Positions 1,653 through 30,068 of a stretch of 64,000 nucleotides of DNA are shown here, one piece after another. Under the pieces are notes generated by a model, which saw only the letters and a program-made list of their open reading frames with translations, had not been told where the DNA came from and searched no databases. Source of the DNA: Escherichia phage slur07. Position 1 is the stretch's first letter. Every line of letters starts with the position of its first letter. The stretch is from sequence record NC_028780.1. One strand, given 5' to 3'. Both the position numbers and the translations under genes were made by a program.

Positions 1653-1940
1653 TTTATTGGAGATTCACTGCCTTAGTGTGAGCTAAATCGAGGAGCCGTC
1701 GAACTGTCTGATTAATGATTCGCAAATCATTATAGTTTTAAGACCCCGGCAGTTTTACGGTGTACCTCTTGAATGTTACTATCATGCGTCAGAAAAGTGT
1801 TATCTGTGTAAGTCTTGGTGGTATGATGACGAGGTTTATGGTTATCCTGTCGGTAAATATTCAAAACCTAAGTACCCCCTTGAGGGCTTGCGCAGGCAAT
1901 GCCAATAAGTCCTGCATTTTCATTTAAAAGAGAATTTATA

Positions 1941-2117
1941 ATGGCAAAACAAGTTAAAGCAAAGAAAGCAGTTGAAAAGAAAGTTGGTGATTCTAAACGC
2001 GCTGGCTACAAGCGTGGGTCGAACTCTCGTATCAATCAAACTGTTGAGAAGATCATGCGCCGAGCACGTGCGGTTCTTCGAGATGATGCTTCTCGTTTTG
2101 GTAAGCAGAAAGCATAA
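1941..2117 (+). CDS. small lysine/arginine-rich protein (58 aa), possible nucleic-acid binder
   Basis: ATG at 1941 (longer ORF from 1899 possible); very basic composition; followed by intrinsic terminator. Confidence 0.5.
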   Translation: MAKQVKAKKAVEKKVGDSKRAGYKRGSNSRINQTVEKIMRRARAVLRDDASRFGKQKA

Positions 2118-2120
2118 GTT

Positions 2121-2146
2121 GAGGACTCCTTCGGGAGTCCTTTTTT
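2121..2146 (+). terminator. intrinsic terminator (GGACTCC-TTCG-GGAGTCC plus T-run)
   Basis: Perfect 7 bp stem, tetraloop, TTTTTT. Confidence 0.7.
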
Positions 2147-2170
2147 ATTTTCCAAAGATTGCATAAAGTT

Positions 2171-2200
2171 GTTTACAGTATAGCTCCTTTGTGATAGTAT
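2171..2200 (+). promoter_or_regulatory. T4-type early promoter (GTTTAC -35, TAGTAT -10)
   Basis: GTTTAC then ~18 nt then TAGTAT; RBS and ATG 2228 downstream. Confidence 0.5.
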
Positions 2201-2227
2201 TATCTTACACAAACAAAGGAGAATAAA

Positions 2228-2560
2228 ATGAAAACGATTAATCTGAACGCTGCAGTTAAAACTAAATGCTTCAATGGTAAATATGATGAAACTATGTGGT
2301 TCTTAATGGCAGTTGAAGGTGATATTATTGAAGTAGAAACAACAGAAGGTATGGGAACAGATTTCACCTTTACAATTCAAGTTCATAATTTCTTTACTGG
2401 TTGGATTTATGAATTGAATACAGTAATCGTTGGAAAAATTGAACAAAATGAATTAGGCGAATGGCATTATGTTACAGCTCGCCAACGTGCAGAACGCTTA
2501 ATTGAGAAGATGAAAAAAGTTGGTAAACTTGACATGCAGCATTGGAAAGTAGTAAAATAA
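2228..2560 (+). CDS. hypothetical early protein (110 aa)
   Basis: ORF with AAGGAG RBS; conserved GGAGAATAAAATGAA initiation cassette. Confidence 0.6.
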   Translation: MKTINLNAAVKTKCFNGKYDETMWFLMAVEGDIIEVETTEGMGTDFTFTIQVHNFFTGWIYELNTVIVGKIEQNELGEWHYVTARQRAERLIEKMKKVGKLDMQHWKVVK

Positions 2561-2562
2561 TT

Positions 2563-2591
2563 GTTTACTTTGGTACAGGATATGATATTAT
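2563..2591 (+). promoter_or_regulatory. T4-type early promoter with stem-loop (GTTTAC / TATTAT; GGTACAGG...CCTGTACC inverted repeat)
   Basis: GTTTAC, 17 nt spacer, TATTAT; 8 bp inverted repeat brackets the -10 region. Confidence 0.5.
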
Positions 2592-2627
2592 ATACCTGTA
2601 CCGCAATTAAACATCTTGGAGAATAAA

Positions 2628-2993
2628 ATGAACTACATCAACTTTGAACGTAAATATGTTTCTAATGGTATTGCAGGTTCTATTGATACTATTTGCCTCT
2701 GGAAACATCAAAACGGATCAGTATGCGAAATTGAACAGTATATGACTCCTAACTACGTTTATATGCGATTTGAAAACGGTATCACGGTTTCAATCACGAT
2801 GGAAGGTTCCAACTTCAAAATCGCTCTGGATGATGATTTCCGTCAACGCGATTTAGGGACTCATCCTTGCTGGAATGGTGCTAATCGTAAACTCTTAGTT
2901 AAAACTTGGATTCGTCATATTCTGAGTAACAGAGCTAAACCTGAGCATCTTGAAGCAATCTTTGATGTAGTTCTTAACGAATTTGATATTTAA
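2628..2993 (+). CDS. hypothetical early protein (121 aa)
   Basis: ATG 2628 preceded by GGAG; track ORF from 2616 uses a TTG start. Confidence 0.6.
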   Translation: MNYINFERKYVSNGIAGSIDTICLWKHQNGSVCEIEQYMTPNYVYMRFENGITVSITMEGSNFKIALDDDFRQRDLGTHPCWNGANRKLLVKTWIRHILSNRAKPEHLEAIFDVVLNEFDI

Positions 2994-3033
2994 AATAAAA
3001 TAAAGGGCTTCGGTCCCTATTGAGGAAAATATT

Positions 3034-3321
3034 ATGTTTATGACTACTTATTTTGATACCCGCAAAAATTTCTGTGAAGTTGTTTTCTCAAAGGCACCTA
3101 AAGACCTTCCTGCACATTTGCAACCTACTAGCGAATCGATTAAAAACTACGTTGATGTGGTTTGTCCTTTAGAATTCCGTACAGTAAATGGGCGTGATAC
3201 TTTAGCTATCACTAAACTCAATCGCGAAATTGACATTGACCCTTCAATTGCGCGTGAAATTAACATTTCTGATATTGGCGGCGGTAATGTTAAATCGCAC
3301 GGTTTTCAGATGAGGTTCTAA
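3034..3321 (+). CDS. hypothetical early protein (95 aa)
   Basis: ORF in tightly packed same-strand array. Confidence 0.55.
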   Translation: MFMTTYFDTRKNFCEVVFSKAPKDLPAHLQPTSESIKNYVDVVCPLEFRTVNGRDTLAITKLNREIDIDPSIAREINISDIGGGNVKSHGFQMRF

Positions 3322-3518
3322 TGAAATTCTTTTTAGGTCAAACTGTTGAATTAAAGGGAGTTGGTATACCTGGATTAATTTCTAAGGTTCTACCTCCATT
3401 TAAATGGAGTGGTATTCAAATAAAAGAGGCTTATATTGTTTCCTGGGTAGATGGAAATGAAGACCTTCGTATGGGTGATGAATTATCTCCTATCTACGGA
3501 TTAAAGGAATTAGTATGA
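3321..3518 (+). CDS. hypothetical early protein (65 aa)
   Basis: Start overlaps previous stop (ATGA). Confidence 0.5.
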   Translation: MKFFLGQTVELKGVGIPGLISKVLPPFKWSGIQIKEAYIVSWVDGNEDLRMGDELSPIYGLKELV

Positions 3519-3721
3519 ATATAATTAATAAGATTTTTGGAATTCAGTACATTAAGGTCACATATAAAGTAACAGATAAAAATCCGTATACTGATGAACA
3601 CGAAGAACCACAAGTTAAGTCTATTATATTAGAAAAGGACCCTAACTGGCCAGTTGAATTTCGTCTTCCTTGCTATGGTCATTGGGCTGATGTTGAAATT
3701 ATAAGCATTGAAAATGTCTGA
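3515..3721 (+). CDS. hypothetical early protein (68 aa)
   Basis: Start overlaps previous stop. Confidence 0.5.
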   Translation: MNIINKIFGIQYIKVTYKVTDKNPYTDEHEEPQVKSIILEKDPNWPVEFRLPCYGHWADVEIISIENV

Positions 3722-4172
3722 GTTAGAGATTAGAAGTAATTTTAGATGGCCATCATGCGCATTAAGTAATTTTGCCCAATGGCCTTTCGTCATGGATGGT
3801 ATTCAATTCGGAGGTCTCGAAGGATTCCTCCAAGGATGTAAGGTGAAAAACGTTGAACAACAACGTCGTATATTTGGATTATCCGGGCTTGCCGCCCAAC
3901 AAGCTGGAAGGTCTTATGCTAGAGCTCAGGACCATGGGACCCTCTTCTGGCTTGGAGTTCCATTTTCAAGATACTCCCCGGCGTGGAAAGAATTATACAC
4001 AAATGCATATTTTGAAGCAGCGATCCAAAACAAGGGCTTTCGTGATGCATTACAAGCCTCGAAAGGAAAAGTTTTGAAGCACAGCATGGCTAGTGGTCTA
4101 ACAAAAGATGATACAATACTAACCGAAGCTGAATTTATTGATGTGTTAAACCTATTAAGAGACTCTCTATGA
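3708..4172 (+). CDS. NADAR/YbiA-like (DUF1768-like) protein, possibly divergent
   Basis: N-terminal LSNFAQWPF...DG...GLEGFLQGCK resembles the YbiA/NADAR signature (SNFA-WP...DG...E-YFQAQK); C-terminal half diverges. Confidence 0.55.
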   Translation: MKMSELEIRSNFRWPSCALSNFAQWPFVMDGIQFGGLEGFLQGCKVKNVEQQRRIFGLSGLAAQQAGRSYARAQDHGTLFWLGVPFSRYSPAWKELYTNAYFEAAIQNKGFRDALQASKGKVLKHSMASGLTKDDTILTEAEFIDVLNLLRDSL

Positions 4173-5005
4173 AGCCTACTATTTTAACTGATATTGATGG
4201 AGTATGTTTAAGCTGGCAATCAGGCCTTCCTTATTTTGCTCAGAAATATAATCTTCCGTTAGAACATATTTTAAAAATGATCCAAGATGAGAAATTTATT
4301 TCTCCTGGTAAACTCTTTAACTGTGATGAAGAACTTGGCGTTAAGCTAATTGAAAAATACAATCGATCAGATTTTATTCGTTACTTGTCTCCATATAAAG
4401 ATGCTCTGTGTGTAATTAACAAATTAAAAGAAGATTATAATTTTGTAGCTGTTACAGCATTGGGTGATTCTATTGACGCTCTGTTGAATCGTCAATTTAA
4501 TTTGAATGCTCTTTTTCCTGGTGCCTTCTCAGAAGTAATGATGTGTGGTCATGATTCTTCAAAAGAAGAGTTGTTCAAAAAGGCAAAAGAGAAATATAAC
4601 GTAATTTGTTATATTGACGATCTCGCTCACCACTGCGATCATGCGAGTGAAATATTACGTGTTCCTGTGTATTGGATGGCTCGAGGAGAGCGTGACAGTA
4701 TTCCAAAAACTGCACAGCGAGTTTATACATGGAATGATGTAGAGAATAAGCTTTTTCCATTGAAGGAAAATAAAGAAAGTTTTGATCGTGAAAAAGCTAT
4801 AAAAGATACAATCGAGAAGATGATTAAAAATGATTCTTTTCGTTGGAACACTACCTGGAGAACTCCTGGATTTAATCCTTATAATCCATATCATCCATAT
4901 CAGACGCATCCGTTTCAGACATGGAACTATATTAAACCCGGTGGTATAGAGTATTTGTATAATAGACCTACTTGTGGTGATAATATTTTCCAAGGAGCAT
5001 TCTAA
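4169..5005 (+). CDS. HAD-superfamily phosphatase/nucleotidase-like protein (278 aa)
   Basis: N-terminal LTDIDGV (DxDG) HAD motif I; start overlaps the NADAR-like ORF; C-terminal NPY/HPY aromatic-proline repeats. Confidence 0.6.
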   Translation: MKPTILTDIDGVCLSWQSGLPYFAQKYNLPLEHILKMIQDEKFISPGKLFNCDEELGVKLIEKYNRSDFIRYLSPYKDALCVINKLKEDYNFVAVTALGDSIDALLNRQFNLNALFPGAFSEVMMCGHDSSKEELFKKAKEKYNVICYIDDLAHHCDHASEILRVPVYWMARGERDSIPKTAQRVYTWNDVENKLFPLKENKESFDREKAIKDTIEKMIKNDSFRWNTTWRTPGFNPYNPYHPYQTHPFQTWNYIKPGGIEYLYNRPTCGDNIFQGAF

Positions 5006-5274
5006 TGTTTGTTGTTCACACTATTTATGAAAATGAAGGTAATACTACACGTGATTATGGTCACGTAAATCAATTTTTTAGATGCAATCCAGAATTCCGA
5101 GCTCAAAAAGACGAACGAATTTTTAAAAAATGTGTAGAGCAAGGTTTCATTTACGTCAAGCACTGGATGCAAGGAAATAAAGTTAGAACCACATATCATA
5201 GGTCTTTGACTGAGCTTAATGATGAATTGATTTATAATAGAGCTGTAAACCAAACTCTAAAGGATGAACAATGA
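5005..5274 (+). CDS. hypothetical protein (89 aa)
   Basis: ORF between HAD-like gene and ligase; overlapping stops and starts. Confidence 0.5.
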   Translation: MFVVHTIYENEGNTTRDYGHVNQFFRCNPEFRAQKDERIFKKCVEQGFIYVKHWMQGNKVRTTYHRSLTELNDELIYNRAVNQTLKDEQ

Positions 5275-6734
5275 TTCTTAAAATTCTGAACGAAATAGCA
5301 TCTATTGGTTCAACTAAGCAGAAGCAAGCAATTCTTGAAAAGAATAAAGATAATGAATTGCTTAAACGAGTATATCGTCTGACTTATTCTCGTGGGTTGC
5401 AGTATTATATCAAGAAATGGCCTAAACCTGGTATTGCTACCCAGAGTTTTGGAATGTTGACTCTTACCGATATGCTTGACTTCATTGAATTTACATTAGC
5501 TACTCGGAAATTGACTGGAAATGCGGCAATTGAGGAATTAGTAGGTTATATTACTGACGGTAAAAAAGATGATGTTGAAGTTTTGCGTCGAGTGATGATG
5601 CGAGACCTTGAATGTGGTGCTTCAGTATCTATTGCAAACAAAGTTTGGCCAGGTTTAATTCCTGAACAACCTCAAATGCTCGCAAGTTCTTATGATGAAA
5701 AAGGCATTAGTAAGAATATCAAATTTCCAGCCTTTGCACAATTAAAAGCAGATGGAGCTCGGTGTTTTGCTGAAGTTAGAGGTGATGAATTAGATGATGT
5801 CCGTCTTTTATCACGAGCTGGTAATGAATATCTAGGATTAGATCTTCTTAAGGAAGAGTTAATCAAAATGACCGCTGAAGCCCGCCAGATTCATCCAGAA
5901 GGTGTGTTAATTGATGGCGAATTGGTATACCATGAGCAAGTTAAAAAGGAGCCAGAAGGCCTAGATTTTCTTTTTGATGCTTATCCTGAAATTAGTAAAG
6001 CTAAAGAGTTTGCTGAAGTAGCTGAATCACGTACTACTTCTAATGGAATCGCTAATAAATCTTTAAAGGGAACTATTTCAGAAAAAGAAGCACAATGCAT
6101 GAAGTTTCAGGTCTGGGATTATGTTCCGTTGGTAGAAATATACGGTCTTCCTGCATTTCGTTTGAAATATGATGTACGTTTTTCTAAACTAGAACAAATG
6201 ACATCAGGCTATGATAAAGTAATTTTAATTGAAAACCAGGTAGTAAATAACCTAAATGAAGCTAAGGTAATTTATAAAAAATATATTGACCAAGGTCTTG
6301 AAGGTATTATTCTCAAAAATATCGATGGATTATGGGAAAATGCTCGTTCAAAAAATCTCTATAAATTTAAAGAAGTAATTGATGTTGATTTAAAAATTGT
6401 AGGAATTTATCCTCACCGTAAAGACCCTACTAAAGCGGGTGGATTTATTCTTGAGTCAGAGTGTGGAAAAATTAAAGTAAATGCTGGTTCAGGCTTAAAA
6501 GATAAAGCCGGCGTAAAATCGCATGAACTTGACCGTACTCGCATTATGGAAAACCAAAATTATTATATTGGAAAAATTCTAGAGTGCGAATGCAACGGTT
6601 GGTTAAAATCTGATGGCCGCACTGATTACGTTAAATTATTTCTTCCGATTGCGATTCGTTTGCGTGAAGATAAAACTAAAGCTAATACATTCGAGGATGT
6701 ATTTGGTGATTTTCATGAGGTAACTGGTTTATGA
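5271..6734 (+). CDS. 30: ATP-dependent DNA ligase
   Basis: 487 aa; KADGARC adenylation motif (KxDGxR); sequence matches recalled T4 gp30 (MILKILNEIASIGSTKQKQ...). Confidence 0.95.
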   Translation: MILKILNEIASIGSTKQKQAILEKNKDNELLKRVYRLTYSRGLQYYIKKWPKPGIATQSFGMLTLTDMLDFIEFTLATRKLTGNAAIEELVGYITDGKKDDVEVLRRVMMRDLECGASVSIANKVWPGLIPEQPQMLASSYDEKGISKNIKFPAFAQLKADGARCFAEVRGDELDDVRLLSRAGNEYLGLDLLKEELIKMTAEARQIHPEGVLIDGELVYHEQVKKEPEGLDFLFDAYPEISKAKEFAEVAESRTTSNGIANKSLKGTISEKEAQCMKFQVWDYVPLVEIYGLPAFRLKYDVRFSKLEQMTSGYDKVILIENQVVNNLNEAKVIYKKYIDQGLEGIILKNIDGLWENARSKNLYKFKEVIDVDLKIVGIYPHRKDPTKAGGFILESECGKIKVNAGSGLKDKAGVKSHELDRTRIMENQNYYIGKILECECNGWLKSDGRTDYVKLFLPIAIRLREDKTKANTFEDVFGDFHEVTGL

Positions 6735-6919
6735 AAGCTTACTTAGAAACAATTGTCGTGGCTCAAAAAGAAGGTGGAGATGTTTCTACTTCTGTATCAC
6801 AAATCATGATTGAATTTATAGATGCATATGCTTATAATAAATTCACAGAAACTTTTGATGCTTATGAAAAAGGTCCAAAGTTTGAAATATATCGTACTCT
6901 CTTACCAATAGATTATTAA
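6731..6919 (+). CDS. hypothetical protein (62 aa)
   Basis: ORF overlapping ligase stop. Confidence 0.45.
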   Translation: MKAYLETIVVAQKEGGDVSTSVSQIMIEFIDAYAYNKFTETFDAYEKGPKFEIYRTLLPIDY

Positions 6920-6935
6920 AGGCCTTCGGGCCTTT
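6918..6935 (+). terminator. stem-loop (AAGGCC-TTCG-GGCCTT) after the ligase operon
   Basis: Hairpin followed by T-rich tract. Confidence 0.5.
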
Positions 6936-6940
6936 AATTT

Positions 6941-6948
6941 TATAAATA
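6941..6948 (+). promoter_or_regulatory. late promoter TATAAATA for alt
   Basis: Exact T4 late-promoter consensus about 20 nt upstream of alt start. Confidence 0.6.
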
Positions 6949-6968
6949 GAATAAACACTAGAGAGGAT

Positions 6969-9059
6969 ATGATGGAACTCATTACAGAATTATTTGACGA
7001 AGATACTACTCTTCCGATTACAAACTTAAATCCAAAGAAGAAAATACCACAAATTTTTTCAGTTCATGTTGATGATGCAATTGAACAACCAGGCTTTCGT
7101 TTATGTACCTATACATCTGGAGGTGATACTAATCGCGATTTAAAAATGGGCGATAAAATGATGCATATCGTTCCTTTTACATTAACTGCAAAGGGGTCAA
7201 TTGCTAAATTAAAGGGTCTTGGACCGAGTCCTATTAATTACATCAATTCAGTATTTACCGTAGCAATGCAAACAATGAAACAGTATAAAATTGATGCATG
7301 TATGCTACGCATTCTTAAGTCTAAAACCGCCGGTCAAGCTCGACAAATTCAACTTATTGCTGATAGACTTATCCGTAGTCGTTCAGGTGGCAGATACGTC
7401 CTTCTTAAGGAACTCTGGGATTACGATAAAAAGTATGCATATATTCTTATACATCGTAAAAACGTATCACTAGAAGACATTCCAGGAGTTCCAGAAATTA
7501 GTACTGAACTCTTTACTAAGGTTGAATCGAAGGTCGGTGATGTTTATATCAATAAAGATACTGGAGCCCAAGTAACTAAAAATGAGGCAATTGCAGCATC
7601 AATTGCACAAGAAAATGATAAACGTTCTGACCAAGCCGTAATCGTTAAAGTTAAAATTTCCCGTAGAGCAATTGCGCAAAGTCAATCATTGGAATCTTCT
7701 AGATTTGAAAGTGAATTATTCCAGAAGTATGAATCTACCGCAGCTAATTTCAATAAACCTGCTACCGCTCCTTTAATTCCCGAAGCAGAAGAAATGAAGC
7801 TTGGAATTAATTCATTAGCTTCTAAAACTAAGGCAGCAAAAATTATTGCTGAAGGAACTGCAGATGAACTTCATTATGACTATAAATTCTTTTCAAAAAG
7901 TGAGGTTAATGAAGTTTCTGAAAAAATTAAAGATGTAATTCTTAATGCGATTAAAAATGAACCAACTACTTCAATAAAATGTTTAGAGAAATACGCAGCA
8001 GCTGTTAATCAACTCTTTGAAGAATATAAAGATAATTGGCTTGATAAACATAATAAAACTCGTAAAGGGCAGCCAGATGAAGTCTGGGAAGAAATAACTA
8101 AAAATGCCTGGAATGCAGCAAAAACTAAATTCCTCAAAAGAATGATTTATAGTTTTTCTGGAATTGGTGCAGGTCCAATGATTGATATTACTATTGCCCG
8201 TGATGGTTCTAAATATACTCCATCACAAAAGCGCGGCATTAGAGAGTATTGTGGTTCAGGATATACTGACATCAATAATCTTCTTTTAGGTCGTTACAAT
8301 CCAGAACGATATGATGTAATGAGTGAAAAAGAAATTGAATCTGCTATAAATAATTTAGATTCAGCTTTTGAAAATGGTGACCGCATACCGGAAGGCATTA
8401 CAGTTTATCGTGCTCAAAGTATGACTGCTCCTATATACGAAGCGCTAGTTAAAAATAAAGTGTTCTATTTCAGAAATTTTGTATCTACTTCTTTAACTCC
8501 TATCATTTTTGGGCGTTTTGGAATTACACATGCTGGTATTGGTCTTTTAGAACCAGAAGCTCGTAATGAATTGACAGTTGATAAAAATGAAGAAGGAATA
8601 ACTATTAATCCAAACGAAATAAGAGCGTATAAAGAAAATCCTGAATACGTTAAAGTTCAAATAGGATGGGCAATTGATGGAGCTCATAAAGTTAATGTTG
8701 TATATCCAGGAAGTCTAGGAATAGCAACAGAAGCTGAAGTTATTCTACCGCGTGGATTGATGGTCAAAGTTAATAAAATAACTGATGCTTCTAATAATGA
8801 CGGAACCACGTCTAATAATACAAAACTCATTCAAGCTGAAGTTATGACCACCGAAGAACTCACCGAATCGGTAATCTATGACGGAGACCGTTTAATGGAA
8901 ACCGGCGAAGTAGTTGCAATGACAGGTGATATAGAAGATAGAGTTGACTTTGCATCATTTGTTTCATCAAATGTTAAACAGAAAGTAGAATCATCTCTTG
9001 GAATTATTGCGTCTTGCATAGATATTACAAACATGCCTTACAAGTTCGTTCAAGGATAA
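6969..9059 (+). CDS. alt: Alt ADP-ribosyltransferase (virion-packaged, modifies host RNA polymerase)
   Basis: 696 aa; N-terminus MELITELFD... matches recalled T4 Alt; ART motifs YRAQS (R), FVSTSL (STS), TEAEVILPRG (ExE); start may be second ATG at 6972. Confidence 0.9.
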   Translation: MMELITELFDEDTTLPITNLNPKKKIPQIFSVHVDDAIEQPGFRLCTYTSGGDTNRDLKMGDKMMHIVPFTLTAKGSIAKLKGLGPSPINYINSVFTVAMQTMKQYKIDACMLRILKSKTAGQARQIQLIADRLIRSRSGGRYVLLKELWDYDKKYAYILIHRKNVSLEDIPGVPEISTELFTKVESKVGDVYINKDTGAQVTKNEAIAASIAQENDKRSDQAVIVKVKISRRAIAQSQSLESSRFESELFQKYESTAANFNKPATAPLIPEAEEMKLGINSLASKTKAAKIIAEGTADELHYDYKFFSKSEVNEVSEKIKDVILNAIKNEPTTSIKCLEKYAAAVNQLFEEYKDNWLDKHNKTRKGQPDEVWEEITKNAWNAAKTKFLKRMIYSFSGIGAGPMIDITIARDGSKYTPSQKRGIREYCGSGYTDINNLLLGRYNPERYDVMSEKEIESAINNLDSAFENGDRIPEGITVYRAQSMTAPIYEALVKNKVFYFRNFVSTSLTPIIFGRFGITHAGIGLLEPEARNELTVDKNEEGITINPNEIRAYKENPEYVKVQIGWAIDGAHKVNVVYPGSLGIATEAEVILPRGLMVKVNKITDASNNDGTTSNNTKLIQAEVMTTEELTESVIYDGDRLMETGEVVAMTGDIEDRVDFASFVSSNVKQKVESSLGIIASCIDITNMPYKFVQG

Positions 9060-9062
9060 ATC

Positions 9063-11120
9063 ATGGAACTTATTACAGAATTATTTGACGGCGCTTCGGC
9101 GCCGGTTGTTAACTTAAATCCTAAGCATAAAATACCACAAATTTTTGCTATCCAAGCCGGCGAAGAAAGCGTGCTTCCTGGATTTAGATTTTGTACATAC
9201 ACCTCTGGTGGTGATACAAATAAAAACGTTAAGCCAGGCGATAAAATGATGCATATCGTAATGATAGGTGTCAATGAGAAACTATCATTAGTTAAGCTTA
9301 AAAACTTGGGTGGAAATCCAATTGGTGTCATTAATGCCGTTTTTGATACTGCTCTTCAAACAATGAAACAGTATAAAATCGACGCATGCCTATTCCGCGT
9401 ACTAAAGAGTAAAACAAATGGCGCAGCTCGTCAAATGCAAGTTATTGCTGACCGTTTAGTACGTACTAAAGGAGCAGGTCGATATGTTCTCTTAAAGGAA
9501 ATCTGGGACTATGATAAGAAATATGCATATATTATGGTTTACCGTAAAAATGCCAATTTAGAAGACATTCCAGGTGTACCTCCTATTTCAACTGAGTTAT
9601 TCACAAAAGTTGAATCAAAGGTTGGTGATGTTTATGTAGACGTTAAAACAGGTAATGCTGTTCCTAAAGCTGTCGCTGTTGCTGCTTCTATTGCTTTAGA
9701 AAATGATAAGCGCACTGATCAAGCTGTTATTCAGAAAACTAAAATTAGTCGTCGATTAGCAGCACAAGCTCAATATTCTACTGTTGATGCTTCACTTCAG
9801 GGTGATAGCTTCGCTGCCAAGAAATATCAAGAGTTTGAATCTAAAGTTCCGGTATATAAAGCAGAAGGACCAATGAACTCTGGCGTTATCCAGATTGGTT
9901 CAAACTTCAGCAAAGGAGCTATCGGTGGTATGAGAAGTGCTTCTCGTTTTAAATCTAATGATTATGAACTAGAAAGTTTCCGAAATCATATTGCATTGAC
10001 CCATGCACGTTTACGCGATCCATCTATCAAGCTGCAGAGCGATATAACATATCAAGGTTCTCAAGAATATTTAAAGAATAAAGAATTCTTTGATTATAAA
10101 ACTGATAAAATTTTAAGCGATCTTGCTGACATTAATATTTCTAATAGCTTTGATGTTATTAAGAAAATTATCAATGATTTAGTTAAAGATTCTAAAGCTA
10201 CATCAGATGAAAAGACAGCTATTATTCAATTTGTAATGAATGGCATTTATAAATTGATTAATGAATCTGCTGCTCAGGCATATGAATACGCAAGCACCGA
10301 AGTAACTCCAAAAGGACTGACTCAGGCTGAATCTGATGTAATTGAAGATTATTGTGCAGATTCATATGTTGAAATGAACTCGTTCCTTTTGGGTAAACCA
10401 GATTCTACCCGTGAAGAATACATGGAAAGAGCTATTAATCACATCGAGACGTTAGATTCTGCCTTTGCCAAAGGATCAGTTCTTCCTCCAGGAACTACAC
10501 TTTACCGTGGACAAGAAGTTACCTTTAAAACTTTGCGTCATAACATTGAAAACAAAATGTTCTATTTCAAGAACTTCGTATCGACATCACTTAAACCAAA
10601 TATCTTCGGTGAGCATGGTAAAAACTATATGGCTCTAGATGATTCCGGCGCAGTATTTTCTGGCGAAGGAGAAGGTTCCGTTGATGCAGAAGATTTAATG
10701 CATATGGGTAGTCATTCTACATATGCCAATGAAGATGCTGAAACTAGCGTAGGTATGGTAATTAAAGGGGCTGAGCGAATCAAAGTTATCGTTCCAGGTC
10801 ATTTATCAGGATTTCCATCAGAAGCTGAAGTTATTCTACCACGTGGAATTTTACTGAAGATTAATAAAGTAAGTACGTACTTTATGAAAGAAACTGCTTA
10901 TAACAAGTATCTAATCGAAGGTACAATCGTTCCTCCTTCTGAACAATTAGAGGAATCGGTATATGATGGCGACCATTTAATGGAAACTGGTGAAGTTCGT
11001 CCAATGGCTGGATTTAATCAATTCCTTGTAGAAGAATCAAAAGAAGAGGAAAACGAAGTTTCTCAAATCTTGGCTTCTTTGGTTAACATCAACGGAATGT
11101 CTAAAAAGTTCAAAATGTAG
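9063..11120 (+). CDS. Alt-like ADP-ribosyltransferase paralog
   Basis: 685 aa, starts 3 nt after alt stop; shares MELITELFD N-terminus, QTMKQYKIDAC, and C-terminal YRGQ / FVSTSL / SEAEVILPRG motifs; central ~200 aa divergent. Confidence 0.85.
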   Translation: MELITELFDGASAPVVNLNPKHKIPQIFAIQAGEESVLPGFRFCTYTSGGDTNKNVKPGDKMMHIVMIGVNEKLSLVKLKNLGGNPIGVINAVFDTALQTMKQYKIDACLFRVLKSKTNGAARQMQVIADRLVRTKGAGRYVLLKEIWDYDKKYAYIMVYRKNANLEDIPGVPPISTELFTKVESKVGDVYVDVKTGNAVPKAVAVAASIALENDKRTDQAVIQKTKISRRLAAQAQYSTVDASLQGDSFAAKKYQEFESKVPVYKAEGPMNSGVIQIGSNFSKGAIGGMRSASRFKSNDYELESFRNHIALTHARLRDPSIKLQSDITYQGSQEYLKNKEFFDYKTDKILSDLADINISNSFDVIKKIINDLVKDSKATSDEKTAIIQFVMNGIYKLINESAAQAYEYASTEVTPKGLTQAESDVIEDYCADSYVEMNSFLLGKPDSTREEYMERAINHIETLDSAFAKGSVLPPGTTLYRGQEVTFKTLRHNIENKMFYFKNFVSTSLKPNIFGEHGKNYMALDDSGAVFSGEGEGSVDAEDLMHMGSHSTYANEDAETSVGMVIKGAERIKVIVPGHLSGFPSEAEVILPRGILLKINKVSTYFMKETAYNKYLIEGTIVPPSEQLEESVYDGDHLMETGEVRPMAGFNQFLVEESKEEENEVSQILASLVNINGMSKKFKM

Positions 11121-11180
11121 TTTACAAGTCCCTCGTGTTGTGTTATAGTAGTCTTACTGACATAACATGAGGAACACAAA

Positions 11181-11471
11181 ATGAAATCTTCTTTACGCTT
11201 TTTAGGTCAAGAACTTGTAGTTGAAGGCGTTATTCCTGTTGATAATGCTTTTAATGAAGCAGTTTACGATGAATTTATTAAAATTTTTGGAACAGATAAA
11301 AAGTTCGGAATTTTTCCTTCTGAAAATTTTTCAAAGCCAGAACAGACTGAAAGTATTTTTCAGGGTGTAGTAACAGGTAAATTTGAGTCAGAAGCTCCGG
11401 TAAAAATTGAAGTTTATATTGAAGACAGTTTAGTTGCTTCAGTTTCTGCTTTCATTTCATTCCGTAAATAA
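11181..11471 (+). CDS. hypothetical protein (96 aa)
   Basis: ORF with GAGGAA RBS; followed by bidirectional terminator. Confidence 0.5.
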   Translation: MKSSLRFLGQELVVEGVIPVDNAFNEAVYDEFIKIFGTDKKFGIFPSENFSKPEQTESIFQGVVTGKFESEAPVKIEVYIEDSLVASVSAFISFRK

Positions 11472-11475
11472 AAAT

Positions 11476-11497
11476 ATGGGGACCGAAAGGTCCCCAT
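11476..11497. terminator. bidirectional terminator hairpin (GGGGACC-GAAA-GGTCCCC)
   Basis: Perfect 7 bp stem between convergent genes. Confidence 0.7.
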
Positions 11498-27005: not shown

Positions 27006-28571
27006 TTAGATACCTTTAACATATACACGGCGGAAGTAAGCGTTCTTACCAAGGCTGTTCAGGATAGAAGGCATACCACTCTGAATGCGAGAAGCCGGAG
27101 CCTGAGCAGCGGATTCTGCAAATGGGTTGATACCGATACCGTAACGAGTTTTGAATCCCATTACTGGTTGGAAGTTCTTCGGATCGGAACCACGCAGCGG
27201 AGTCAGAGCTACATATGGAGCATAGTAAATACCAGCATCCATTTCGTTCGGACCTTTATAACCTACAGTGAAATAATCCTGTTTAGCATACTGGTCGATG
27301 TATACGCGGTATTTACCACCAAGTACACCGGCAAATACAGACTTAGTAGTGTCGGTATTAAAACCGGAAGCCAGACCCTGTGCAGCGTAAGAAATACCAG
27401 TATCAACAGAAGCCAGTACGTTAACTACGTTACGGGAAGCGATAATGAAGTTACCTTCGCCGCGACCAGTCTGACGAGCAATTTCAACTGCTTCTTTATC
27501 AATCTGGAACAACAGAGATTTAAAGCTTTCACCGGCCCAACGAGCACCACGGATATCAATCGGGTCCTGGAAGTCAAATACACCAGCTTTAGAACCCGGA
27601 GTCAGGGTCATACCAGATTTACCAACCTGTGCAGAGTAGTTAATCCAATCAACAACTTCACGGTTGATTTCCAGCATGATTTCGGTAGCCAGAATACCAG
27701 ACAGTTCAGCATCAGCATCCATACCGTGAACAGCGCGGAGGTCTTGTGCTAATTCAATAGAGTAAGCAGCTTTCAGCTGACGAGATTTAGCTTCGATAAC
27801 TTGCTTATCGATACGGAAGCCCATTTCATTCCATGGGTTATCGGTAGAACCATTGAAACCTTCCTGAAGTTCAGCGATAGAAGTAGCCATACCTTCAGCG
27901 ATTTCTACCAGTGCACCAGCTTCCATTTGTTTCTTAATTTCAGCATCTAATTTAGCAGCATCAGTCGCACCAGCATCGATTGTTACTTGAACAGAAGCTT
28001 GCAGATACACAGTACCAGTGTCCTGGAAGAAGTGAGTATAGATATCACCTACTGTGGTTTGTGTGCTAGCAGCCAGAGCTGGGAATTTCTTAGCAGCACC
28101 CTGACCAGAGAACATTGCATCTGGACCATACATTGGGTGGAATGCTTCTTTAGCATCGGCAGCGATTGGGTCTTTACCGTATACAGCGCGCAGTGCGAAT
28201 ACCTGACCAGTCGGGCTGTTCATCGGCTGAACACCGCAAATATCGAAAGCAATCAGGTTAGGAATAGCACGACGTACCATACCCATAACAGCTGGGCCAA
28301 TCTGAGTTACTGCGCCAGAAGTCTGACCTGCAGCGATGTTGGTAGCATTGTAACCGTGGTCACCACCGATTTCAGCTTCTGTTAAGAAAGAACCGAATGC
28401 CTGAGCAATTTTTTCGTCTTTATATTCCGGAGCTGTCTGGAAATCTTTTTCCTGGTTTTCAAAGATTTTAGCGATAATCGCTTGTTTGCTATTAGCAATT
28501 TCCGGTAAACCTTCACCTTCCAGTAATGGCTTCCATTTGTTCAAAAGTTCAGCTTTAGTTTTGATAGTCAT
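27006..28571 (-). CDS. 23: major capsid protein
   Basis: 521 aa, T4 gp23 size; strong codon bias typical of a highly expressed late gene. Confidence 0.95.
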   Translation of the reverse strand: MTIKTKAELLNKWKPLLEGEGLPEIANSKQAIIAKIFENQEKDFQTAPEYKDEKIAQAFGSFLTEAEIGGDHGYNATNIAAGQTSGAVTQIGPAVMGMVRRAIPNLIAFDICGVQPMNSPTGQVFALRAVYGKDPIAADAKEAFHPMYGPDAMFSGQGAAKKFPALAASTQTTVGDIYTHFFQDTGTVYLQASVQVTIDAGATDAAKLDAEIKKQMEAGALVEIAEGMATSIAELQEGFNGSTDNPWNEMGFRIDKQVIEAKSRQLKAAYSIELAQDLRAVHGMDADAELSGILATEIMLEINREVVDWINYSAQVGKSGMTLTPGSKAGVFDFQDPIDIRGARWAGESFKSLLFQIDKEAVEIARQTGRGEGNFIIASRNVVNVLASVDTGISYAAQGLASGFNTDTTKSVFAGVLGGKYRVYIDQYAKQDYFTVGYKGPNEMDAGIYYAPYVALTPLRGSDPKNFQPVMGFKTRYGIGINPFAESAAQAPASRIQSGMPSILNSLGKNAYFRRVYVKGI

Positions 28572-28589: not shown

Positions 28590-29399
28590 TTAGAAACGAG
28601 ATGCGACTTTCGCATATACACTTACAATATCTTCTGCACCAGGTGCAGCTTTATCTTCTACAGCTTCAGTGACGAAATTCAGTCCGGCTGCTTCAGTATC
28701 AGGAGTATTTATACTCTCAGTAATAGTGCTTTCATCTTTATTAGATTTCTTCACCATTTCTACGATTGCACTCAATTTACTTGAGAATGCATCTGAATAA
28801 TCCATACCTTCGACCAGAGCAGAGACTTTTTCTTTTTGAGACTCAGTCAGATCTTTAGTACTTTCGCTCAATGCCACTTCACGCTGCACATAATTGATAT
28901 ATGCGTCACGCTTATTGAGTTCTTCGAACAGACGAGCTGATTCTTCTTTATGTTCTTGCAGCTCTTCTTCCATTTCAGCTACAACATCAACTGATTCTTC
29001 TGGAACAACAACGTTGTGTTCAACAAAGAGCTCTTTTAATCCACCAAGCATGGATTCAAACAGTTCGGCTTTGATGCCTTTATCAACTGCTAATTTATTT
29101 TCAGCGAGCCATTCTTTTGCAAGATGGTCAATGAATTTAGAAGCTTGCTCAGCGATTTTCTTCTCAGCTTTTTCTTCGGCTTCTTCTTTATTTTTTTCTA
29201 CTTCTTCTTCTGCTTTTTCAGCAATTTTAGCGATATGAGATTCAGCTAATTTAACGGCGTGCTGCTTGACGGTAGCTTCGAATACAGTGCCGAAAGTTTC
29301 TTTTGCTTCCGGAGAAATATTAACTGATTCGAAAATACTATCAAGAGCAACGGAAGCATCAATTTTCTGCGCTTCAGCAATCAGTTGTTCTTTAAGCAT
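28590..29399 (-). CDS. 22: prohead core scaffold protein
   Basis: 269 aa, highly acidic coiled-coil, T4 gp22 size. Confidence 0.9.
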   Translation of the reverse strand: MLKEQLIAEAQKIDASVALDSIFESVNISPEAKETFGTVFEATVKQHAVKLAESHIAKIAEKAEEEVEKNKEEAEEKAEKKIAEQASKFIDHLAKEWLAENKLAVDKGIKAELFESMLGGLKELFVEHNVVVPEESVDVVAEMEEELQEHKEESARLFEELNKRDAYINYVQREVALSESTKDLTESQKEKVSALVEGMDYSDAFSSKLSAIVEMVKKSNKDESTITESINTPDTEAAGLNFVTEAVEDKAAPGAEDIVSVYAKVASRF

Positions 29400-29429: not shown

Positions 29430-30068
29430 TTATAACGCTTTTTTCATGGCCTCTGCGAGAGCCATATAGGCGTCATCGGCACTTGTATCGGCTTCCGCCG
29501 TCTGTGATTCGGTAATTTCCTTAGGAGTTACCCATGCATCTGGAGCACTTGGACCCCATACTGCATCAACACCTACAGTTAATTTGAATCCTTCGTTTAC
29601 GATACGATAACCTTTATTTGTGTCAGTCAATGAACCTAATCCACGAGAAGAAACTCCTGGAATCCATCCGGCACGAATATTAGCTGCTAATTTATCTCCA
29701 GGACCATGGTCACCTTCAATAACACGAGCTCGTCCGTATACGTCATTTCCTTTCCACCACATATCTTCTATAATGATAGCGGCTTGCATCGGGTCAACAT
29801 TAGCGCGTGGAGGATGATTTAATTCTCCGAGAGCTTGTTTAGTTAAAACTTGCTCATTAATATAGTCTTTTACCGCTTTTTCTAATATACGTTTTGGATA
29901 AAGACGTTTATTTCTATTGACGACTTCCGCTTGCATGAATATTCCTTCGATGTATAAACCCGGTTTTAAACCTAAGTCTTTTCCATCGTGAGATTCAAGC
30001 ATTGGCACGCCATCAATAATTTCGCCAGGTTGACCCCAAGTTTCAATTAGTAATTGGGGTTCATTCAT
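29430..30068 (-). CDS. 21: prohead core protease
   Basis: 212 aa, T4 gp21 size; gene 22 late promoter (29427-29434) abuts its 3' end. Confidence 0.9.
   Translation of the reverse strand: MNEPQLLIETWGQPGEIIDGVPMLESHDGKDLGLKPGLYIEGIFMQAEVVNRNKRLYPKRILEKAVKDYINEQVLTKQALGELNHPPRANVDPMQAAIIIEDMWWKGNDVYGRARVIEGDHGPGDKLAANIRAGWIPGVSSRGLGSLTDTNKGYRIVNEGFKLTVGVDAVWGPSAPDAWVTPKEITESQTAEADTSADDAYMALAEAMKKAL

Follow-up and report, generated by a model that had tools for sequence, protein, structure and literature searches.

The subject of this study is a tandem pair of genes for Alt-type ADP-ribosyltransferases (ARTs) in Escherichia phage slur07, found in a stretch of 64,000 nucleotides (nt) of sequence record NC_028780.1 that was analysed at its full length and is called the window below. 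We put a probability of about 0.8 on the reading that this locus holds two standing alt paralogs of the Tequatroviruses, in which copy 1 is another allele at the position of T4 alt, copy 2 is an intact gene of a second lineage (type B), and both products would act by the mechanism proposed in the Discussion. On the comparisons presented here, types A (which includes T4 Alt) and B are old paralog lineages whose split predates the divergence of Tequatrovirus and Dhakavirus. The pair itself is already known, being annotated in hundreds of genomes with its paralogy noted since 2006; it is the usual state of the relatives of T4, and it is T4 that is the exception.

Two full-length alt genes with intact catalytic motifs

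Two open reading frames (ORFs) lie head-to-tail on the + strand, at 6969..9059 (copy 1, 696 amino acids (aa)) and 9063..11120 (copy 2, 685 aa), with a gap of 3 nt between them, and PF03496 is found in both, in agreement with an original prediction, made from the sequence alone, of two full-length Alt-type genes. Copy 1 opens with ATGATG, and because a Shine-Dalgarno sequence GAGAGGA (6961-6967) and the T4 annotation point to the second of these ATGs (6972) and not to the upstream in-frame one (6969), we favour a gene at 6972..9059 and a protein of 695 aa that begins with MELITE. The order on the + strand is ligase gp30 (5271-6734), an alt.1 homologue (6731-6919), copy 1, copy 2 and an alt.-3 homologue (11181-11471), with gp54, gp48 and gp29 on the - strand beyond the latter; the pair is flanked by gene 30 (DNA ligase) and gene 54 in a Tequatrovirus genome, which is the position of the T4 Alt family.

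Both copies match PHROG 802 ('Alt-like RNA polymerase ADP-ribosyltransferase') end to end, copy 1 with E = 1.6e-272 and copy 2 with E = 2e-256, and both exceed the cutoff of 23.4 bits for PF03496 (ADPrib_exo_Tox), with 129 and 71 bits, respectively. Cluster representatives at 98-99% identity carry PF26846 (the Alt N-domain) together with PF03496, the PF26846 call being one precomputed on these database proteins (P0007 and P0127). Copy 1 is the type A gene; copy 2, of type B, corresponds at full length to what T4 has as alt.-1/alt.-2, and it is called 'alt.-2' in RB32.

The MELITE N-terminus and the catalytic motifs of the original prediction can be read in both ORFs. In copy 1, numbered over 696 aa, MELITE is at 2, YRAQ at 480, FVSTSL at 504, EAEVILPRG at 588 and YDGDRLMETGE at 637; the corresponding positions in copy 2 are MELITE 1, YRGQ 481, FVSTSL 505, EAEVILPRG 587 and YDGDHLMETGE 634. 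The catalytic residues are Arg480, S505-T-S507 and E587-A-E589 in copy 1 (numbered over 695 aa) and Arg482, S507-T-S509 and E587-A-E589 in copy 2, so the second ORF lacks neither the Arg nor the Glu. R480/R482, STS and E587-x-E589 are invariant in a 24-sequence alignment that covers types A and B, and the ExE of both copies aligns with E574-M-E576 of T4 Alt. Mutation of the second Glu of this motif, named E577A, inactivates T4 Alt (PMC11404850); in the 682-aa T4 Alt record the same residue is E576, an apparent off-by-one in numbering that comes perhaps from counting an upstream in-frame ATG. AlphaFold2 (AF2) models of the two copies match arginine-specific ARTs best, and for the whole copy 2-type gene, compared with three relatives, the ratio of nonsynonymous to synonymous substitution rates (dN/dS) is 0.04-0.06. 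Together with the late-promoter box and the motifs for the prohead protease gp21 described below, these features make both copies look like active, packaged and injected enzymes, as had been predicted.

Divergence between the two copies

For comparison the proteins were cut at conserved anchors into an N-terminal segment (to KISRR), a centre, an ART segment (from IxxY to nine residues past ExEVILPRG) and a tail. BLASTP aligns the two copies end to end at 41% identity (719 columns, E = 1e-158), and by segment, in the order N/centre/ART/tail that is kept below, identity is 68/21/38/36%. Only the N-terminal ~232 aa are well conserved; the ART and the tail keep islands of conserved motifs, and the loops between STS and ExE are unrelated. 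Profiles of type A (T4 Alt, copy 1 and relatives) and type B (copy 2 and relatives) were compared with hhalign, which gave a probability of 100% for the N-domain (E = 4e-118) and the ART (E = 4e-51), 99.5% for the tail and 3.4% for the centre, that is, no profile-level homology between central families A and B. Iterated hidden Markov model (HMM) searches on the centres collected 29 members of family A, 19 of family B and two further small families, and never crossed between A and B. PHROG 802 places both centres on the same profile columns (E = 6e-30 and 6e-24), a sign of homology that we discarded as an artefact of a mixed-family profile because the direct hhalign comparison gave so low a probability and the HMM searches stayed within each family.

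The AF2 models, with a mean predicted local distance difference test (pLDDT) score of 75 and 74, give both copies one predicted architecture: an alpha/beta N-domain, an all-helical stretch of ~220 residues, an ART beta-core and a disordered C-terminus. In these models the helices of the two centres match closely in order and length. The N-terminal domain spans aa 7-232 in copy 1 (6990..7667), where it ends at the invariant KISRR and is identified through PF26846 on near-identical database proteins, and aa 7-231 in copy 2 (9081..9755). Alignment and structure prediction, supported by segment identities, profiles and HMM searches, delimit the central all-helical region to aa 233-422 in copy 1 (7668..8237, family A) and aa 232-426 in copy 2 (9756..10340, family B). 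The ART domain, placed by Pfam, motifs, alignment and model, follows at aa 423-604 (8238..8783) and aa 427-604 (10341..10874); all of these features are on the + strand. The claim that the central ~200 aa are unrelated therefore stands at the level of sequence and profile, but the centre does not bound the divergence, which extends to the ART and the tail. Its description in copy 1 as rich in Ala and Lys has to be toned down, the bias being mild (K 12%, A 11%, E 10%).

A structure search of BFVD returned SP18 Alt as the best match (679 columns, template-modelling score 0.65-0.70); this reflects a common overall architecture and does not resolve the centre. The N-domain alone, used as a query for fusions to domains other than ARTs, gave six matches, all of them Alt fragments, and no other effector type. 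For the N-domain and for the centre, Pfam at E = 10 and NCBIfam yielded nothing usable, nor did PDB sequence searches with the N-domain profile and with full-length copy 1.

Mosaic evolution of alt genes

We compared the pair with T4, with Dhakavirus and with 30 loci from IMG/VR, which carry one to three tandem alt genes each and among which L016 and L021 are Dhakavirus-like. Copy 1 and T4 Alt share the locus (gene 30/alt.1 to alt.-3/gene 54), the R-S-ExE residues and the gp21 motifs (ITE-6; LTE then SVIYDGD), and their segments are 99/37/62/90% identical, which makes copy 1 a gene with a different allele of the middle block. Copy 2, at 68/20/40/36% to T4 Alt, is a different paralog. The Dhakaviruses JS98, JS10, Bp7 and QL01 have the same two-gene order, type A first and type B second, with a first copy whose ART is 95% identical to that of copy 1, a second copy that is the type B orthologue, and N-domains only 42-46% identical to those of the window. 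Accordingly, copy 1 is 46/68/95/61% identical to the first copy of L016 (L016@3913), whereas copy 2 is 46/45/60/60% identical to the second (L016@5998), a uniformity expected for vertical descent.

Third codon positions locate the breaks within copy 1. Against T4 alt, third-position identity is ~0.9 in aa 1-240 and 621-695 and ~0.45 between them, with near saturation over aa ~241-600, which shows that a whole centre-plus-ART block has been replaced between T4 Alt and copy 1. Against Dhakavirus-type alt, aa ~461-620 are ~92% identical in nucleotides with a third-position identity of 0.78-0.82, and the same measure is only 0.23-0.5 over the N-domain and the greater part of the centre; this pattern indicates that an ART-domain segment moved laterally, and fairly recently, between the two. 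Quartet bootstraps against L016 and L021 unite N-domains of the same genome in 1000 of 1000 replicates, but the centre, ART and tail group by paralog in 999-1000 of 1000. Centres of type B are met again at position 2 of the Dhakavirus-like loci, of the L008 group and of L030, whose best matches are Alt proteins of Acinetobacter phages. Taken together, these comparisons show exchange of centre-plus-ART blocks and of ART segments between lineages, and N-domains kept alike within a genome either by gene conversion or by re-fusion to imported cassettes, with the junction right after KISRR.

Further loci add to the mosaic. In L004 an allele of the T4 type precedes an intact copy 2, and in L007 a copy 1-type allele precedes a T4-type remnant, so that with T4 and the window all four combinations of allele and state are seen: within Tequatrovirus, recombination reassorts the two positions. 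At L025 there are three alt genes in tandem (1864-8124), of which copies 2 and 3 have N-domains 90% identical but unrelated cassettes (centre 20%, ART 35%); likewise, the position-2 copies of L021 and L016 have N-domains 94% identical and different cassettes. The position-2 gene is split in L009 (6001-8123, 392 + 315 aa) and truncated, without ExE, in L028 (6001-8025), and BFVD holds 'split RNA polymerase ADP-ribosylase' proteins from Acinetobacter phages. Extra alt copies are thus gained and decay repeatedly.

The pair in relatives and its loss in T4

A 4.8-kb query spanning the locus was covered to at least 80% in 377 phage records, mostly at 95-99% identity and including RB32, RB27, RB33 and numerous recent isolates, and most of these records are annotated with two ADP-ribosyltransferases. 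Identity to the copy 2 type is 90% or higher in 400 phage records. In RB32 the two genes are named 'alt' and 'alt.-2', and the annotation adds 'apparent insertion in alt.-2; similar to alt'; classical phage T2 holds an intact pair. In RB32, T2 and ~400 other Tequatrovirus records this is the same tandem pair, 95-100% identical, with no material difference and already annotated as 'Alt-like RNA polymerase ADP-ribosyltransferase (x2)'. The nearest records to the slur07 window are ~97-98% identical in nucleotides, and none is identical. In the literature, T4 alt.-1 and alt.-2 were recognised as paralogous duplications of alt by Nolan et al. (2006), who also noted a full-length alt duplicate in 44RR (PMC1524935), and a 2026 genome paper describes two Alt-like paralogs of 43% identity and speculates on 'expanded targets' (PMC13600099), which is nearly what the original prediction proposed when it gave the second paralog a different host protein, possibly a defence factor, as its target; Petrov (2010) does not discuss alt.

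T4 carries alt (682 aa) at the position of copy 1, and alt.-1 (61 aa) and alt.-2 (67 aa) at that of copy 2. These two small genes, split and truncated in T4 where the gene of the window is intact, are the first ~116 codons of copy 2 (~97% identical in nucleotides over 348 nt). T4 lost type B by a frameshift and a deletion bounded by microhomology: one nucleotide is missing from an A-run, which breaks the frame in two, and a 1.69-kb deletion, corresponding to 9411..11100 (+) of the window, lies between near-identical 9-mers, CTAAAGAGT (9402-9410) and CTAAAAAGT (11101-11109). T4 is the exception, since the junction of this deletion is contiguous in only 91 of the 498 matching records (~18%), many of which are T4 derivatives.

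Predicted processing and packaging

T4 Alt is packaged in the head in ~40 copies and ejected with the DNA (PMC9026906, PMC5694885), and besides being an enzyme it is regarded as a component of the head core (PMC11404850). It is cut by gp21 at ITE-6 and also at LTE-619, the latter site having been found by mass spectrometry and its cleavage removing 63 C-terminal residues (PMC5694885). At the level of motifs, the gp21 sites are kept at both ends of both copies. Each begins with a putative N-terminal propeptide MELITE, in which the gp21 motif ITE is followed by LFD (copy 1, 6972..6989; copy 2, 9063..9080; both +), and cleavage here would follow the T4 Alt precedent. Towards the C-terminus the motif is LTE-SVIYDGD in copy 1 and LEE-SVYDGD in copy 2, so that the predicted C-terminal propeptides are aa 633-695 of copy 1, after LTE and beginning SVIYDGDRLMETGE (8868..9056, +), and aa 632-685 of copy 2, after LEE and beginning SVYDGDHLMETGE (10956..11117, +). 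The predicted mature forms, by this analogy, are aa 7-632 and aa 7-631.

The tail that the original prediction saw as common to both copies, ESVxYDGDxLMETGEV, is present in both but not in one form, copy 1 reading ESVIYDGD and copy 2 ESVYDGD, without the extra residue. Because it comes directly after the C-terminal gp21 site, this tail would be the start of the discarded C-terminal propeptide and lie outside the mature enzyme. E632, Y636-D-G-D639 and E643 are invariant across types A and B in the 24-sequence alignment. Model confidence falls below a pLDDT of 50 at aa 651-695 of copy 1 and at aa 630-681 and 683-685 of copy 2, where the predicted propeptides are modelled as disordered. On the - strand of the same window are the gp21 protease (29430-30068, PF03420), the gp22 scaffold (28590-29399, PF25623) and the gp23 capsid protein (27006-28571, PF07068), which by analogy with T4 would be responsible for packaging and trimming the two Alt proteins.

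Expression signals and neighbouring genes

A T4 late-promoter box, TATAAATA, found by box scan and confirmed by reading the sequence, stands at 6941..6948 (+), 23 nt upstream of the start of copy 1. The window has 25 matches to this box against 9.06 expected, and the one at 6941-6948 is the only one placed for driving both alt genes; a second exact TATAAATA lies within copy 1 at 8345-8352 (+), ~710 nt upstream of copy 2, for which it would be a candidate internal promoter. The 3-nt gap ahead of copy 2 contains no late-promoter box or other promoter. With the box upstream of copy 1 and a promoter-free gap, the two genes are likely co-transcribed late in infection, which would fit head-core proteins. 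The Shine-Dalgarno sequence of copy 2, AAGGA (9052..9056, +), ends 1 nt before the stop codon TAA of copy 1 (9057-9059), an arrangement that suggests translational coupling of copy 2 to copy 1. Between the alt.1 homologue and the alt promoter, direct reading of the sequence reveals a GC-rich hairpin, aaaggccttcgggccttt (6920..6937, +), which is absent from the output of the terminator scan and which probably terminates the early ligase transcript.

The neighbouring genes have features of their own. The alt.1 homologue, a 62-aa ORF at 6731-6919 (+) whose RB32 equivalent is annotated alt.1, overlaps the ligase stop codon by 4 nt and matches PF24647 'Phage blade protein' (E = 7.5e-29). The alt.-3 homologue at 11181-11471 (+) encodes 96 aa (PF17602, DUF5498), has its own sigma70-type promoter match at 11121-11149 (TTTACA-17-TATAGT with TG), and is followed on its 3' side by a bidirectional terminator-like hairpin at 11476-11497. 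Extended forms of Alt.-3 (110 or 117 aa), made by read-through, allow T4 to escape the CmdTAC defence system (PMC11618068).

Comparison with known systems

Substrates (RNA polymerase (RNAP) alpha R265 and others) are known for the T4 allele of Alt only, to which the ART of copy 1 is 62% and that of copy 2 40% identical. The arginine-specific R-S-E toxins Vis, C3, iota/CPILE-a, VIP2 and Certhrax are 16-24% identical in sequence to the Alt copies; unlike them, Alt has no secretion or translocation partner and is delivered by phage ejection. Nor do the Alt copies share the two ART folds of the binary toxins (iota Ia/C2-I/VIP2/CdtA), no second, ART-like adaptor domain having been detected in them. 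ModA and ModB of T4 are single-domain enzymes of ~200 aa, without the Alt N-domain or propeptides. They too are R-S-E ARTs of a phage, with targets in the transcription and translation machinery of the host, and reviews describe them as early products that are made after infection and not injected.

A parallel in plan exists with the polymorphic toxin and MuF effectors, in which a conserved domain for delivery carries an exchangeable effector at the C-terminus (PMC9503650), since here too a lineage-specific N-terminal part is joined, at KISRR, to fast-evolving blocks that are exchanged laterally. The differences are that all Alt cassettes seen are ARTs of one superfamily and that no MuF domain was found, the N-terminal 240 aa giving no Pfam match at E = 10 (in a Pfam set without PF26846) and no PDB sequence match. 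No immunity gene was recognised at the locus, although none was specifically searched for, and the sole downstream gene, the alt.-3 homologue, is conserved regardless of the cassette type. To our knowledge, an injected effector has no known immunity function, nor would one be expected.

Discussion

In this study, we have characterised the alt locus of phage slur07 as two standing paralogs, and we propose the following mechanism for their products. Both genes would be transcribed late, as one message from the TATAAATA box at 6941-6948, with copy 2 translated by coupling to copy 1. Each protein would consist of a 6-residue propeptide ending in ITE, an N-domain of ~225 aa, a helical middle of ~190 aa, an ART of the arginine-specific R-S-ExE type (C3/VIP2/Vis), a linker of ~27 aa and a C-terminal propeptide of 54-63 aa after L-x-E. 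By analogy with T4 Alt, both would be incorporated into the core of the prohead, lose their two ends to gp21 and be ejected with the DNA; ahead of all phage gene expression, they would then mono-ADP-ribosylate host proteins at arginine residues. In the last and least certain step, the substrate spectra of the two enzymes would most likely differ, because the helical middle and the surface loops of the ART are essentially unrelated between the copies; different substrates are, on this basis, plausible.

Several points weigh against parts of this proposal. Expression, packaging, cleavage, injection and activity are carried over to both proteins from T4 Alt, and different substrates are argued from sequence divergence. 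With at least 27 targets, RNAP alpha R265, EF-Tu and MazF R84 among them, T4 Alt is itself a promiscuous enzyme, so some overlap between the substrates of the two copies is likely. T4 does well in the absence of type B, and its alt gene is also non-essential (PMC9026906), so the second enzyme is not needed on laboratory hosts and may be redundant to a large degree. Judging from the matching helices of the models, centres A and B may also be one fold that has diverged past recognition by sequence, and the likeness of N-domains within a genome fits either gene conversion or repeated re-fusion. We found no proteomics or biochemistry of the second paralog in the literature.

What the second copy is for can be read in other ways. 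We give almost no weight to the idea that it lacks catalysis and is kept as a structural or core protein for head assembly, or that the gene is decaying and has simply not been lost so far: the role of Alt in the head core (PMC11404850), the lower Pfam score of copy 2 (71 against 129 bits) and the loss of the gene in T4 would agree with it, but its Arg, STS and ExE are intact and invariant across the sampled homologues, it is kept in 400 records at that high identity, and dN/dS is low over the whole gene, which argues strongly that copy 2 is neither a pseudogene nor a purely structural relic. A redundant duplicate that modifies the same host proteins (RNAP alpha Arg265 and others) and adds dose or robustness is a stronger proposal, given the promiscuity of T4 Alt, the arginine-specificity motif ExE common to both copies, the ability of T4 and of ~18% of the matching records to do without copy 2, and the repeated decay of extra copies (L009, L028 and the split Alt of Acinetobacter phages). 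We nevertheless consider it rather unlikely, since dosage duplicates are expected to stay similar or be lost, and these two lineages have centres without detectable homology and ARTs 38% identical with unrelated STS-ExE loops, and have been separate, under strong purifying selection, since before the Tequatrovirus/Dhakavirus split. The original prediction had instead seen a target-recognition module exchanged between otherwise similar enzymes, meaning that a foreign segment replaced the central ~200 aa after a recent duplication and left the rest unchanged. The centre is indeed the least similar segment, with no profile-profile signal, and blocks do get replaced in the family (between T4 Alt and copy 1, and at position 2 between L021 and L016). 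This account is highly unlikely, however: the enzymes also differ in ART and tail, as old paralog lineages would; centre, ART and tail share one tree by paralog and so travelled together; type B centres at position 2 in several groups mark the difference as old; and both centres are modelled as all-helical, of near-equal length and with matching helix order.

How the N-domains came to be alike is a separate matter. Each genus could have duplicated its gene recently and on its own and then taken in foreign centre-plus-ART cassettes, which would account for this without gene conversion between old paralogs, and the second and third copies of L025, the position-2 copies of L021 and L016, and the movement of ART segments between genera all speak for such a history. 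It is somewhat doubtful as the general explanation, because type A is always at position 1 and type B always at position 2 in Tequatrovirus and Dhakavirus-like loci, and because copy 2 and its L016 counterpart differ evenly along their length, as in vertical descent; the two processes are also not mutually exclusive. Beyond the two-paralog reading, it is possible, although we would put it below even odds, that the alt locus is an arsenal of two, occasionally three, slots for injected arginine-specific ARTs, in which a genome-specific N-domain for head packaging is fused at KISRR to laterally exchanged blocks and type B has a target of its own (for example, a defence or stress protein) that affects host range on natural isolates.

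In conclusion, the combination of an N-domain that tracks the genome with effector blocks that track the paralog type or cross genera fits injected effectors under pressure from conflict with the host. T4, the model for all Alt biochemistry, is a natural null for type B and carries a different allele of the first enzyme, and conclusions on the action of Alt may not transfer from T4 to T2, RB32 and most therapeutic Tequatroviruses. By the same token, comparing T2 or RB32 with T4 provides a genetic contrast, already at hand, by which the type B targets might be found.

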